A stretch of 64,000 bases of DNA, taken from Nannocystis pusilla (GTDB taxonomy: Bacteria; Myxococcota_A; Polyangia; Nannocystales; Nannocystaceae). The stretch covers positions 157,990 to 221,989 of the forward strand of contig NZ_JAIRAU010000047.1 in the NCBI RefSeq assembly GCF_020073745.1. Direction: 5' to 3'. Position 1 is the first letter of the stretch; every line of letters starts with the position of its first letter. A program made the position numbers and the translations under genes. The notes beneath the pieces were generated by a model that searched no databases, had not been told where the DNA came from, and saw only the letters and a program-made list of their open reading frames with translations. This document shows, piece by piece, positions 19,746 through 24,233 of the stretch.

Positions 19746-20013
19746 GATGCTTCGCTACATCCTCTACACGTCTATCGAGAGACGGGCAAGTGGGCATCAC
19801 GTGGTCGGCCATCGAGCGCACGATCCCATGGCCGATGCGTCATCCACCCGGAGGCCAAGTCCCCCATGGAGCGCTCGCCTTGCACGGCAGCAAGAACATC
19901 GCTCAGTTTCGCTGAGTAACGACGTTCTCTTCGTTGCGCCTCCGAGTCTGGACAACTCCAAGGCGCAACGATAGCCTCACCTCCGCACGGGGATACCCGG
20001 CCCGGGGGAGGCA

Positions 20014-20904
20014 ATGGATCAGCGCGTCAAATACCAGATCTTCATCTCGTCGACTTACAGAGACCTTCATGAGGCTCGTCGGGAAGTTTCGTGGACTGTT
20101 CTCGGGCTCGATCATATCCCCGCGGGAATGGAAGCTTTTCCAGCCACAGATGATCGGGGATGGGGTATTATCAAACGGACGATCCAGGACTCGGACTTCT
20201 ATATTCTCCTAATCGCGGGACTCTACGGATCCATAGATCAAGAAACCGGACTGTCCTGGACCGAGAAGGAGTACGATTTTGCAAAATCACTCAACCTTCC
20301 CGTGCTCGCCTTCGTTCAGCGGAGGAGCGCAACGCCCGGCGACATGGTCGAGGCGAACGCTAAGCAGAAGAAACTGCTCAACCGTTTCATATCACGAATT
20401 CGAGAATCTCACTATTACAAAGAATGGAGCGAAGACAAGGAACTCAGCGGCCTGGTCAGCCTCGCGCTCACCCGTGAGATCCAAATCGCTAACGAGAGCC
20501 GCTTCCGCCCCCGAGGCTGGACCCGCGGTCCGGACGCGGCGGCAGCCTACACAAGGACCCTCGCCTTGGCCCAAGATCGCAAGAGCATATTGATAGAACC
20601 CCTCACCATTGATGGCCATCAGGCCCTTGCAGTCACCCATTCCTTCGCCCGATTGAGGGACCATGACTATGCCACGCTCACCGTGGAGATGCCTTCAGTG
20701 CCTTACGGTCGGATTACGATGGGGTCAGATGGAGTGCCTCAGCATGAGCTTCGCGGTCATACCCCACCAGCGACCACTGCCCAGATTCCCTGGACTGCGG
20801 TGACGAGCGCACGCCCGGACGACAGCCTACCACACCTCTTCCATCTACATCTCCGGCAACCGCTCACATTTCGGTCGTCGAGTCGTGTCTGGGAGATTAT
20901 CTAG
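20014..20904 (+). CDS. DUF4062 domain protein (first gene of the low-GC island operon)
   Basis: YQIFISSTYRDLHEARREVSWTVLGLDHIPAGMEAF...YILLIAGLYGS matches my recollection of the DUF4062 N-terminal domain signature. GGGGGAGG RBS. About 50% GC versus about 70% for flanks. Confidence 0.75.
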   Translation: MDQRVKYQIFISSTYRDLHEARREVSWTVLGLDHIPAGMEAFPATDDRGWGIIKRTIQDSDFYILLIAGLYGSIDQETGLSWTEKEYDFAKSLNLPVLAFVQRRSATPGDMVEANAKQKKLLNRFISRIRESHYYKEWSEDKELSGLVSLALTREIQIANESRFRPRGWTRGPDAAAAYTRTLALAQDRKSILIEPLTIDGHQALAVTHSFARLRDHDYATLTVEMPSVPYGRITMGSDGVPQHELRGHTPPATTAQIPWTAVTSARPDDSLPHLFHLHLRQPLTFRSSSRVWEII

Positions 20905-20906
20905 CC

Positions 20907-21446
20907 ATGGATGCACTTGTGAGCATCTGCATCTTTATGGGCATCTTCGCTGGTGTTGCGCTGGTCGTACAACGACTAGGGCGTCCCCCGGAACGTGCGC
21001 ACTTGCTCAGCACGCGGAGAGAGGGCAGCGTCGACGCGAACCGCTACACACCGCCGCTGACCCAGCCGATGCCGCGCACCGTGCCAAGTCCGACAGGAGT
21101 GCAAGCCTCGCACGCTCCCGATATTGAGAGCATCTTTCTTAGGTTCGAATCCGTACATGAACAGGCGCTCCTGATGAGTAAGGGACTAGACGGCATCGAC
21201 GCGCCGGACGCACCGCCGACCCCGCGCACGGCGTTGACCGATCTCATACACTATCTCTGTTGTGTCCGGAGGCTTGTCAAGCCCTTCACGCTCCACATTG
21301 GAATCCAACTCCGTCAGCAACCCGGAAGCCCAAGCTTCGCCGAGCCGATCGAATTTCCCGGCCTCCCGGGCAATGGGCGGGCGGACTTGATTCAAGAACA
21401 ACTGGCCTCCAGTTTCAGAAGGCACCTGGAGAGATTGGGTGCGTAG
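20907..21446 (+). CDS. Hypothetical protein with N-terminal TM helix (island gene 2)
   Basis: Starts 3 nt after the stop of gene 1. Has N-terminal VSICIFMGIFAGVALVV. No recognisable domain. Confidence 0.5.
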   Translation: MDALVSICIFMGIFAGVALVVQRLGRPPERAHLLSTRREGSVDANRYTPPLTQPMPRTVPSPTGVQASHAPDIESIFLRFESVHEQALLMSKGLDGIDAPDAPPTPRTALTDLIHYLCCVRRLVKPFTLHIGIQLRQQPGSPSFAEPIEFPGLPGNGRADLIQEQLASSFRRHLERLGA

Positions 21447-22454: not shown

Positions 22455-23022
22455 ACCTCAGGCGCACCAAGGACTCGAGCAAGAGCGACAGGTCCGATCG
22501 CTGACGATGTACACAGCGATTGTCGTAATCGCCACGGCGCTCTCACTGGTCGCCCTGCTTCTGCCCCGAATCTCCGAGCCGGGAGAAAACCTGGGCATCG
22601 CGCTGGCCGGGGGGGCGCAGGAGGGTAGCGACAGTAGCGGCAATGGGAGTGAAGACAATCGCTACGAATTGAGGCGCAAGCTATCGGAGGTCGAGGCCGC
22701 TCGAGATCTCGGTGAGATGTGCTTGGGCAAGTGCAATTGTCTTTGCTACAGCAGGCGTGTCGGTAACACAATCGAGCCGCTCACCGTGTGTAGGCTGAAT
22801 CAGGACGCGTGCTTAGCGCTCGAAAGCAAGGTGCGGGGCAAGAGCCCAGGCTCATCATCGGGCCGCGCGGTGGGGAATTCTGTCAGCGTCTCCTGTCGCC
22901 AAGTCGATCTGAGGGAGATCGACCGAATTAACGGGGTCAATCGACACGAATGGTCTCCTAGCATACGCAATGGCGGAGAACTGTTCGGTATCTTTTATGC
23001 CGGGAAATGTCTCCTGGACTAA
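22447..23022 (+). CDS. Single-TM protein with Cys-rich C-terminal region (island gene 4)
   Basis: ATG overlaps the GTPase stop by 8 nt. TM segment MYTAIVVIATALSLVALLL. Cys cluster CLGKCNCLCY...CRLNQDAC...C. Confidence 0.5.
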   Translation: MDRPQAHQGLEQERQVRSLTMYTAIVVIATALSLVALLLPRISEPGENLGIALAGGAQEGSDSSGNGSEDNRYELRRKLSEVEAARDLGEMCLGKCNCLCYSRRVGNTIEPLTVCRLNQDACLALESKVRGKSPGSSSGRAVGNSVSVSCRQVDLREIDRINGVNRHEWSPSIRNGGELFGIFYAGKCLLD

Positions 23023-23035
23023 GGGCAGCAGACGA

Positions 23036-23773
23036 ATGAGCACGATTGACGAGCAGTCGGCAGCAGCCTCGAACACGGAAACACCCACTCGTCGGGAAGA
23101 GACAGATTCCTCAACCCGTGTTCCGGGAGGAGAGGAGAACGTGTTCGCGGCGACAGGTAGACGTGGAGACGAAGCCCGCGGCCGAGATGGGCTAGGCCTC
23201 GTACCCTATGCGGAATTGGACAACGTGGACTTCAGGGTCAGCGAGAGAGCGGTTTCAAATGCCGTCTCTGCAGGGAGTAAAGAGGCCGTCGACCCCCGCG
23301 CTTGGTCGCCACTGGTGTCCGGAACATGGTTACTCGCGGTGTTCACCCTCGTCTCGGTCCTGAGCCTCTCGATCTACGCATTTCGCCTCTCGAACCGCGT
23401 CTCGGAGCTCGAGCGGGTGTTCGCCTCGAGTCCTCGCGGTGGCGCTAGCAGCTCGGTCGACAAGGCATACGACATGAACGGACAGCCCGATGTCGAGGAG
23501 GCGCCACACGCGAAAACCGAGCGAAAGCGAAGAGACGCTAGATCGGAGAGCGTCGCCCCTGAAGCCCCAGAAGTCGCGGAATCCGCCGCGGTGGTCGGCA
23601 GCGAGGCTTCGACCGGAGATGCTGAGCCCTCCGCAGTCCTTCCGGAGACTGACGACAGAGTAGCTCCGCGGGAGCCGAGCGCCCGCGCGCCGAAGGAGAA
23701 GAAGGGAACGGCCAAGAAGGGTACCAAGAAGCCGAGTGGGGGCGACGAGGAGTCACAGGGAACACCCAAGTAG
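23036..23773 (+). CDS. Single-TM protein with charged Lys/Glu-rich C-terminal tail (island gene 5)
   Basis: AAGGG RBS. TM segment WLLAVFTLVSVLSLSIYAF. C-terminus KEKKGTAKKGTKKPSGGDEE. Confidence 0.5.
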   Translation: MSTIDEQSAAASNTETPTRREETDSSTRVPGGEENVFAATGRRGDEARGRDGLGLVPYAELDNVDFRVSERAVSNAVSAGSKEAVDPRAWSPLVSGTWLLAVFTLVSVLSLSIYAFRLSNRVSELERVFASSPRGGASSSVDKAYDMNGQPDVEEAPHAKTERKRRDARSESVAPEAPEVAESAAVVGSEASTGDAEPSAVLPETDDRVAPREPSARAPKEKKGTAKKGTKKPSGGDEESQGTPK

Positions 23774-24233
23774 GCGACTATGTACGGAAATGCTGCCCAT
23801 CCTGATCGCCCAAATCGGCCATGGTGCTCGCGGAGCATCCGAAGCACCGGCTTGACGGTACGCCCAGCAAGAAGGCGCAGCGCAACTTCACCGACCCGAG
23901 AGCAACTGATGATGACCTGGACGGCTTCGTTTCACTCGGCAAGCGACCCGGAACGAGGGCCTACGCGATACGACTCAGGCTCGCTCGCGCTGGCTTGGGC
24001 AGCCGCTATCGCCTGCCCAAGCAAGTCGTCGAACCCGTCACCGGACAGGACAAAGCAGCGCTCGGCTCACACGATTTCTAAGCCGTGAGTGACCAACCGC
24101 CGTCGTCGGCTCGGCGTGGAATGCCCTATGGCGAGGGGCCGTGAGCGCCTGCTCGACGGCCAGGGACCGGCCCCCGAACAGACGCTTTCTCGCGTCAATT
24201 ACGGCGAGTCGATGACGGCATCGCGCCATCCGG

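Follow-up and report, generated by a model that had tools for sequence, protein, structure and literature searches.

The DNA analysed here is a 64,000-nucleotide stretch of contig NZ_JAIRAU010000047.1 from Nannocystis pusilla, referred to below as the window and numbered from its first letter. Between positions 18313 and 24229, the window carries a recently acquired genomic island with no recognisable mobility gene, in a strain annotated as N. pusilla, and the support for this acquisition is strong. The island holds an operon of five genes, o1 to o5, along with a divergently oriented gene, est. On balance, the operon appears to be a horizontally acquired candidate for an NAD+-depleting abortive-infection system, which would be a new multi-gene variant of the NIR type; this assignment is drawn from sequence and is held with moderate confidence. 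It is built chiefly on o1, a predicted NADase, and on o3, a predicted membrane-anchored Ras-like GTPase.

A recently acquired genomic island

An earlier sequence-only reading had described a sharp drop in guanine-cytosine (GC) content at positions 19746-24233, and the drop is real. The GC content of this segment is 60.0%, against 72.3-72.4% for the remaining window, and it is the GC minimum among the 4.5-kb stretches of the window. When the segment is taken in 500-bp pieces, the mean GC is 0.596 with a range of 0.536-0.644, and not one of 231 such pieces drawn from the concatenated flanks lies below 0.62; in the intact sequence, the lowest 500-bp value outside the island is 0.612, at 27751. 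The figure of about 50-55% given in that reading was, however, too low, since the average is about 60% and only local minima get to 53.5%. The third-position GC (GC3) is 0.63-0.70 in the island genes and 0.93-0.99 in the native genes, with est at 0.81. Similarly, the codon adaptation index (CAI), for which 20 native genes of the window served as the reference set, is 0.24-0.31 for o1-o5, 0.46 for est and 0.67-0.85 for the native genes. Thus, sliding-window GC, GC3 and codon adaptation all deviate and none of them is uniform. The five consecutive plus-strand genes that had been listed are indeed present, and, as had also been claimed, no paralogs of the island proteins are seen elsewhere in the window.

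Related genomes provide an empty site. The GMC oxidoreductase gene that follows the island was used as a query over one genome per GTDB species. Its ortholog in N. radixulma NCELM, the closest genome, is 98% identical, and orthologs of 90-91% identity occur in N. pusilla Na p29, N. exedens, N. punicea, N. bainbridge and Nannocystis sp. RBIL2. Neither the island genes nor a homolog of est was found within 10 kb of the GMC ortholog in N. radixulma or in five other Nannocystis genomes. By blastn, positions 16123-18229 and 24230-26543 are collinear with the N. radixulma locus (L009) at 92-97% identity; the collinearity breaks at 18229/18312 and restarts at 24230. At the island site, L009 has a 535-bp spacer holding an open reading frame (ORF) of 151 codons, and positions 18221-18312 match L009 11857-11948 in inverted orientation with 92% identity (blastn). 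At its right end, the island comes within 4 bp of the GMC oxidoreductase stop codon. The insertion has, therefore, replaced and rearranged a small gene and is not a clean integration. As the whole of 18313-24229 is without a counterpart in N. radixulma, the acquired DNA includes est. This gene had been taken for a native esterase flank of about 70% GC, a view which does not hold because it is missing from the empty site and accompanies the operon in two other copies of the cassette (L004 and L005, described below).

The proposal that the DNA was horizontally acquired is, thus, strongly supported by the base composition, the codon usage, the empty site in N. radixulma and the other genomic contexts in which the cassette is found. 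For both o1 and o3, NCBI has a Nannocystis pusilla protein with 100% identity (WP_224195981.1 in the case of o3), and o3 is the single Nannocystis entry of its kind among 5.8 billion proteins.

As the earlier reading had noted, no integrase or transposase is present among the Pfam and NCBIfam matches. Flanking repeats, direct repeats included, were considered as att sites or target-site duplications and were rejected, since only short matches at chance frequency were seen and no target-site duplication or terminal repeat exceeds chance. An 11-bp perfect inverted match at 18151/24181 is of a kind expected about five times by chance. A tRNA or non-coding RNA as the insertion target was also discarded, there being no tRNA genes in the window and no Rfam matches in the region. 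The same applies to a plasmid or phage origin, as tblastn and blastn searches of PLSDB and INPHARED gave no match to the cassette, and IMG/VR contains no relatives of it. In the right tail of the island, an ORF at 23780-24088 was considered as a sixth operon gene; its GC2 exceeds its GC3, it is not conserved elsewhere and it is probably no gene. A transposase remnant in the same tail (peptide KKAQRNFTDP...DGFV) was dismissed as well, since the tested ORF-like peptides gave no Pfam or NCBIfam match at E <= 10.

It was also observed that, at the points corresponding to 16016/16123 and 26543/26608, L009 has two additional segments (3.7 kb and 2.2 kb) that are absent from the window. These extra segments mark the 16-27 kb neighbourhood as a zone of strain-level gene turnover. 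Other Nannocystis species have differing genes downstream of GMC. The gene at 16095-18152 has an intermediate GC3 (0.86) and CAI (0.59), and no family match.

The five-gene operon and its products

DUF4062/NIR is established as a TIR-like NADase effector of abortive infection by three 2026 preprints (bioRxiv 10.64898/2026.05.01.722283, 2026.06.25.731849 and 2026.09.04.749371). The product of o1 is a predicted NADase and a member of this family, and its NIR domain and stalk resemble those of Swarozyc. It matches Pfam PF13271 (DUF4062) over residues 8-90 with 86.1 bits (cut-off 24.7) and E = 1.8e-24, while residues 6-175 match the TIR/DUF4062 entry of KpSwz in the PDB at E = 2e-34 (the phmmer alignment ends at 175; the KpSwz structures are 10wc, 11cq and 11cv). 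The pair E86-Y87 is invariant across 67 aligned homologs. The catalytic glutamate is E97 in KpSwz and E108 in PsAvs2, and o1 E86 falls in the column of KpSwz E97, which reads Ala in the PDB chain of the cryo-EM E97A construct. The pair also corresponds to the E-Y catalytic region described for Evangelion (bioRxiv 10.64898/2026.06.25.731849).

The o1 protein is soluble and consists of the NIR domain with a helical stalk (1-170), a disordered linker and a beta-rich C-terminal domain, AUX (210-296). Its AlphaFold2 (AF2) model, with a predicted local distance difference test (pLDDT) score of 80.7, has a TIR-like alpha/beta fold whose structural matches are TIR, NDT and MilB. The AUX domain is short and predicted to be all-beta, and has no sequence match to the AUX of KpSwz. 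Among 1,174 DUF4062 matches, this C-terminal domain is common only to the cassette copies, the exception being a solo protein, P0023 (locus L082), which aligns to it weakly and with many gaps. In PADLOC-DB v2.0, o1 finds only a partial match (13 bits, E = 0.008). The myxobacterial DUF4062 relatives adjoin Abi_C, IS21 and RHS/PAAR genes, or integrase and caspase/CHAT genes, and such surroundings would fit a conflict role for the DUF4062 branch of o1.

The third gene encodes what its motifs predict to be a small GTPase of the Ras superfamily, with all motifs intact. Two N-terminal transmembrane helices precede a G domain, in which G1 (GLGRSGKT), G2 (S113-T114), G3 (DYQGQ; D139-x-x-G142-Q143), G4 (NKID; N240-K-x-D243) and G5 (S296-A297) are invariant or nearly so in 13 aligned sequences. 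Q143 is the equivalent of Ras Q61. About 40 extra residues, predicted to be helical, lie between G3 and G4. The family scores are borderline: SRPRB scores 24.9 bits (cut-off 25), Arf 22.5 (cut-off 22.3) over a stretch of just 40 residues and TIGR00231 18 (cut-off 42.5), with G-alpha marginal. The AF2 model (pLDDT 77) was matched by Foldseek to NRAS, Rab21, RhoB and others at E ~1e-8, with target-normalised template modelling scores (TM-scores) of 0.6-0.7. The whole GTPase family comprises 16 proteins among 5.8 billion. In the P-loop (residues 90-97), R93 is nearly invariant, and this is presumably the position of the cis arginine finger of hGBP1 (GLYRTGKS) and atlastin; by analogy, it hints that GTP hydrolysis by o3 may be activated by dimerisation. 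The function of the island, which had been called unknown, is thus refined by two of its genes, one for a predicted TIR-like NADase of the DUF4062/NIR family and one for a membrane-anchored Ras-like GTPase.

In seven loci from other phyla with more distant members of the GTPase family (L066, L067, L069, L070, L071, L074 and L003), the transmembrane GTPase is followed by a small gene, whose product combines the motif [YL]S..D.[VI]D[FY][KR]V with a single transmembrane helix and a coiled-coil segment. The o5 protein resembles it, with DNVDFRVSER followed by a transmembrane helix and then RLSNRVSELER. Motif, architecture and position agree; the hidden Markov model comparison (E = 0.67 among 751 ORFs) is not significant. 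The GTPase and an o5-like gene may be an ancestral two-gene core. In L074, the pair adjoins ORFs that resemble, by eye, the HicA/HicB toxin-antitoxin genes.

The junctions o1/o2, o2/o3, o3/o4 and o4/o5 measure +2, 0, -8 and +13 nt, and this spacing indicates translational coupling. The ratio of nonsynonymous to synonymous divergence (dN/dS) between the window and L005 is 0.16 for o1, 0.45 for o2, 0.09 for o3 and 0.18 for o4; the comparison of the window with L004 gives 0.32 for o5 and 0.18 for est. With dS at about 0.5-0.7 in these comparisons, the values imply purifying selection on all six genes. The fastest-evolving operon gene is o2, which is 61% identical to its L005 counterpart.

The operon order recurs at four other loci. 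L005 (Logan SRR25375774) has est and o1-o4, with o3 90% identical, and its contig ends beside the cassette. L004 (Logan SRR29352979) holds a permuted cassette with o3 76% identical. L001/L002 (GCA_030424595.1) has o1-o5 (o3 61%, o1 44% and o4 51% identical) next to alcohol dehydrogenase and FG-GAP genes, while L081 (GCA_041156765.1) has o1, o2 and o3 up to the contig end, next to bestrophin and amine-oxidase genes. Thus, in at least two of the four (L001 and L081), the neighbours are unlike those in the window and unlike each other. Every member of the GTPase family that is more than 55% identical to o3 resides in such a cassette. Wherever flanks are present in the data, the cassette is low in GC relative to them, as in L001 and L081 (0.57-0.65 against 0.66-0.72). 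At about position 5419 of L081, the o3 homolog is split by a frameshift, which is either an assembly error of the metagenome-assembled genome or the mark of a decaying copy.

The five genes behave as one unit: their order is kept in five loci, their junctions are tight, they are under purifying selection, and the AUX type of o1 is nearly confined to cassettes. A particular arrangement is seen in L004, where positions 1-4743 are circularly permuted and read the 3' end of o2, o3, o4, o5, 175 bp, est on the minus strand, 352 bp and the 5' part of o1, so that both contig ends fall within the most variable, fastest-evolving segment. The permutation implies that the six-gene unit, which has no known recombinase, exists either in tandem copies or as a circle. 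To judge from this sequence, the unit may move in such a form.

The remaining operon products are membrane proteins, and their layout was read from hydropathy. The o2 protein (179 aa) has an N-terminal membrane anchor and a domain of about 155 aa, which by the positive-inside rule is probably cytoplasmic; it has no family match in the libraries searched. The o5 protein (245 aa) begins with an acidic region, spans the membrane once and continues into a short coiled coil and a charged tail rich in Lys; it is 60% identical to its L004 counterpart and 36% (partial) to that of L001. The o4 protein (191 aa), whose start overlaps the o3 stop by 8 nt, crosses the membrane once, and its C-terminal Cys-rich domain is, by the same rule, probably periplasmic. 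Strong homologs of o4 are cassette copies only. A profile of it, run against 1.84 billion representative proteins, gave four weak matches (P0139-P0142; E = 2e-5 to 2e-4), which have in common W-C-x-C-Y...TACR...C..LE.K...C...CLL[DE]. In three of the four, predicted membrane proteins or lipoproteins, the motif sits at the C-terminal end or close to it, in keeping with an extracytoplasmic location; in P0140, it is internal. The Cys-rich domain looks like an undescribed small extracytoplasmic domain, shared by predicted membrane proteins or lipoproteins that are not related in other respects. P0141 also has a NADase_transloc F5/8 type C domain.

The divergent gene est is island cargo, and its homologs adjoin the cassette in L004 and L005 with 69-70% identity. 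Its product, which would be secreted, has a lipoprotein-like N-terminus and the motifs HFHGT and GHSAGG, from which it would be an alpha/beta-hydrolase; no match was found in Pfam, NCBIfam, PHROG, PADLOC or the PDB.

In the divergent intergenic region between est and o1, there is a hairpin with a folding energy (dG) of -24.5 kcal/mol and z = -4.2. The sequence-only reading had reported such a hairpin at the left edge of the island; the structure exists, with an 11-bp outer stem, whereas its place is 43-83 nt upstream of the o1 start and not at an edge. A candidate promoter overlaps it, and was not reported by a consensus promoter scan of the region. The right arm of the hairpin (GGCGCAACGATAG) and the pattern T[GA]GACA-N17-TAGNNT are kept in L004 and L005, and this conservation suggests a promoter at 19949-19977. 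The left arm is not kept in either copy. Because of this and of its position in a promoter region, the hairpin was rejected as a conserved element or island border; it is a promoter-region feature specific to this copy and no insertion scar.

Table 1. Features of the island and its junctions (window coordinates)
Feature	Coordinates	Strand	Description
Left junction scar	18221-18312		92-bp inverted fragment of the small ORF in the N. radixulma empty site
Island-specific DNA	18313-24229		5,917 bp, 62.2% GC; no counterpart in N. radixulma
est	18384-19745	-	453-aa predicted lipoprotein, divergent from the operon; gene call backed by homolog alignment
Hairpin with overlapping candidate promoter	19931-19971	+	11-bp outer stem, 19931-19941/19961-19971
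Candidate promoter	19949-19977		TGGACA 19949-19954, 17-nt spacer, TAGCCT 19972-19977
o1	20014-20904	+	gene call backed by homolog alignment
o2	20907-21446	+	gene call backed by homolog alignment
o3	21447-22454	+	gene call backed by homolog alignment
o4	22447-23022	+	gene call backed by homolog alignment
o5	23036-23773	+	gene call backed by homolog alignment
Right tail	23774-24229		456 bp, no detectable gene; no similarity to other loci

The candidate system, known systems and alternative explanations

In the proposed abortive-infection system, o2-o5 would assemble into a complex of the inner membrane and detect, at the envelope, an event associated with infection. On detection, the GTPase o3 would switch its nucleotide state. 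The complex would then engage the AUX domain of o1 and relieve the autoinhibition of the NADase, as portal binding does in Swarozyc; NAD+ would be depleted, and the infected cell would abort phage production. The NADase activity, the coupling of the proteins, the envelope trigger and the anti-phage role are all inferred. A bolder form of the proposal is put forward only tentatively. It states that a membrane Ras-like GTPase, together with the periplasm-facing Cys-rich protein o4 as a sensor and two further membrane proteins, might be the switch that licenses a NIR NADase, which would be a new kind of immune system, carried on a six-gene unit that possibly moves in tandem or as a circle.

The Swarozyc system consists of one gene, whose AUX binds the phage portal and frees the autoinhibition via the stalk (bioRxiv 10.64898/2026.05.01.722283). 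The TIR-like domain and helical stalk of o1 align to KpSwz, and the catalytic Glu is kept. However, KpSwz acts alone and its AUX is helix-turn-helix/winged, whereas o1 has an AUX predicted to be all-beta and its gene is translationally coupled to four membrane-protein genes, one of them for the GTPase. The locus, therefore, falls outside the Swarozyc definition, since its AUX has another fold and o1 does not stand alone. Evangelion (Eva01-04) is a single-gene, plasmid-borne family of DUF4062 plus AUX (bioRxiv 10.64898/2026.06.25.731849). It has in common with o1 the DUF4062 core with the E-Y region, a variable auxiliary region and a location on horizontally mobile DNA, and differs in being single-gene and plasmid-enriched, o1 being part of a five-gene operon. 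A text search of the Swarozyc and Evangelion papers found no mention of 'GTPase' or 'transmembrane'.

NIR is also contained in NIR-Avs2, Vulcan (NIR-HEAT) and Vesta (VstA NIR with VstB alkaline phosphatase; bioRxiv 10.64898/2026.09.04.749371), and no GTPase or transmembrane partners are described in the sections of that paper that were consulted. As these systems are portrayed there, NIR is a modular effector in multi-gene or NTPase-gated systems, and in Avs2 a STAND NTPase controls it, which is similar in principle; the operon differs in its separate membrane Ras-like GTPase, in place of a fused STAND ATPase, and its four membrane partners, and has no phosphatase or HEAT/TPR sensor.

Among other defence systems, Kiwa (KwaAB) and Zorya (ZorAB with effectors) rely on an inner-membrane complex for sensing infection at the envelope and for controlling an effector in the cytoplasm. 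Neither of them is known to include a GTPase or a NADase. The likeness is one of concept only; no relationship in sequence or domains was detected, and o2-o5 have no PADLOC match. The prokaryotic small GTPases of the MglA and Rup families and the eukaryotic SR-beta/Arf resemble o3 in having a small G domain with G1-G5 and, for SR-beta, an N-terminal membrane anchor, but o3 stands apart with its two transmembrane helices, G3-G4 insert, P-loop Arg and tiny family. The NTP-dependent conflict systems of Kaur et al. 2020 involve AP-GTPases or GIMAP-like GTPases in vWA-MoxR ternary systems, and their architecture differs from that of o1-o5. No published or PADLOC system matches the five-gene set.

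Several observations weigh against an immune role. None of o1-o5 has a significant match in PADLOC-DB v2.0, and o2-o5 have no match at all. There is no recognisable defence island around the island of the window or L001, their neighbours being oxidoreductases, hypothetical genes and kinases; the PADLOC matches of the neighbours are generic Ser/Thr-kinase matches only, and so a defence-island context was set aside as uninformative. The cassette is very rare, with five loci, apparently all in high-GC, Myxococcota-like genomes. Around the distant GTPases (27-41% identity, from Chloroflexota and from metagenome contigs of low GC), there is no DUF4062 gene and no o2 or o4. The alignments for AUX, o2, o4 and o5 are shallow, the AUX model having been built on only about five sequences, and the coupling of o1 to the membrane proteins is deduced from sequence.

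The alternative that survives best, although unlikely, is that o1 is a self-sufficient defence protein of the Swarozyc/Evangelion type and o2-o5 an unrelated GTPase module that travels with it. The characterised Swarozyc and Evangelion systems are all single genes in which AUX senses and NIR kills, the distantly o1-like P0023 occurs alone in L082, and the GTPase family exists without DUF4062 in other phyla. On the other hand, the genes co-occur in all five cassette loci, even at saturated synonymous sites (dS >2.5) and in at least three genomic contexts. The o1 stop lies 2 nt from the o2 start and the o2 stop abuts the o3 start, and an AUX of the o1 type is hardly seen outside cassettes.

It is less likely still that the operon has nothing to do with immunity and is an accessory envelope or signalling module, for instance one engaged in secretion, polarity or predation, whose membrane GTPase and NAD+-processing enzyme work with est as a secreted hydrolase. 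Myxobacteria use Ras-like GTPases for polarity, which lends this idea some weight, as do the co-inheritance of est at three of the five loci, the missing defence-island context and the ordinary-looking surroundings of the distant GTPase homologs. However, L001 and L081 are without est. The cassette has a patchy distribution by horizontal transfer, with copies that remain low in GC. Furthermore, the NIR catalytic residue is kept, and the closest NIR relatives are defence proteins or lie in conflict contexts.

A Thoeris-like scheme, in which o1 would sense infection and make an NAD+-derived signal, and the membrane proteins and GTPase would kill by membrane disruption, is given a small chance. 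The TIR-family enzymes of Thoeris make signals that activate separate effectors, some of them membrane proteins, and this general precedent is in its favour, as is the fact that four of the five operon proteins are membrane-embedded; against it, no ligand-binding domain (Macro, SLOG, SAVED or STING) was detected in o2-o5. Finally, an assembly or annotation artefact, or a native region of odd composition, is effectively refuted, because o1 and o3 are identical to N. pusilla records at NCBI, the operon is also present in independent assemblies, purifying selection acts on its genes and the closest relative has a clean empty site, with nothing on the other side except the absence of mobility genes and of a target-site duplication.

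Other features of the window and biological meaning

A native gene of 949 aa at 30578-33427 on the plus strand (GC3 0.97) matches the Major Vault Protein (MVP) domains MVP_shoulder (1.3e-9) and Vault_3 (6.3e-8), and lies about 6 kb from a DUF4062 gene. In eukaryotes, the vault protein TEP1 has DUF4062 as its NADase domain. That the two genes are close is probably a coincidence, since the segment collinear with N. radixulma (window 26608-32000) takes in the first half of the MVP-like gene and leaves out the island. Bacterial MVP homologs have been reported earlier (bioRxiv 10.1101/872010).

The only other low-GC patch of the window, at 27750-28250 (about 0.60-0.61), is intergenic and upstream of a lipoprotein-like gene that starts at 28161, and a 42-nt tandem repeat of 2.7 copies occupies 27239-27350; both look ordinary. 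The Ser/Thr kinase genes at 12699-14642 and 28569-29738, in the vicinity of the island, match the PADLOC kinase models PD-T4-6, mad6 and MkoA. Myxobacteria encode many Ser/Thr kinases, and these are, therefore, probably generic kinase-domain matches.

NIR NADases have been known as immune effectors only since 2026, as single proteins, as STAND or HEAT fusions, or paired with a phosphatase. If the proposed role of the operon is true, it would extend the range of NIR systems and be a tractable example of a small GTPase that acts as a switch in bacterial immunity. Envelope sensing would thereby be linked to NAD+ depletion, and small-GTPase-gated innate immunity would have a prokaryotic precedent. 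A likely role is, in this way, given to four orphan protein families. The island itself is an example of how a very large myxobacterial genome gains a defence-like cassette that has no recognisable mobility genes.

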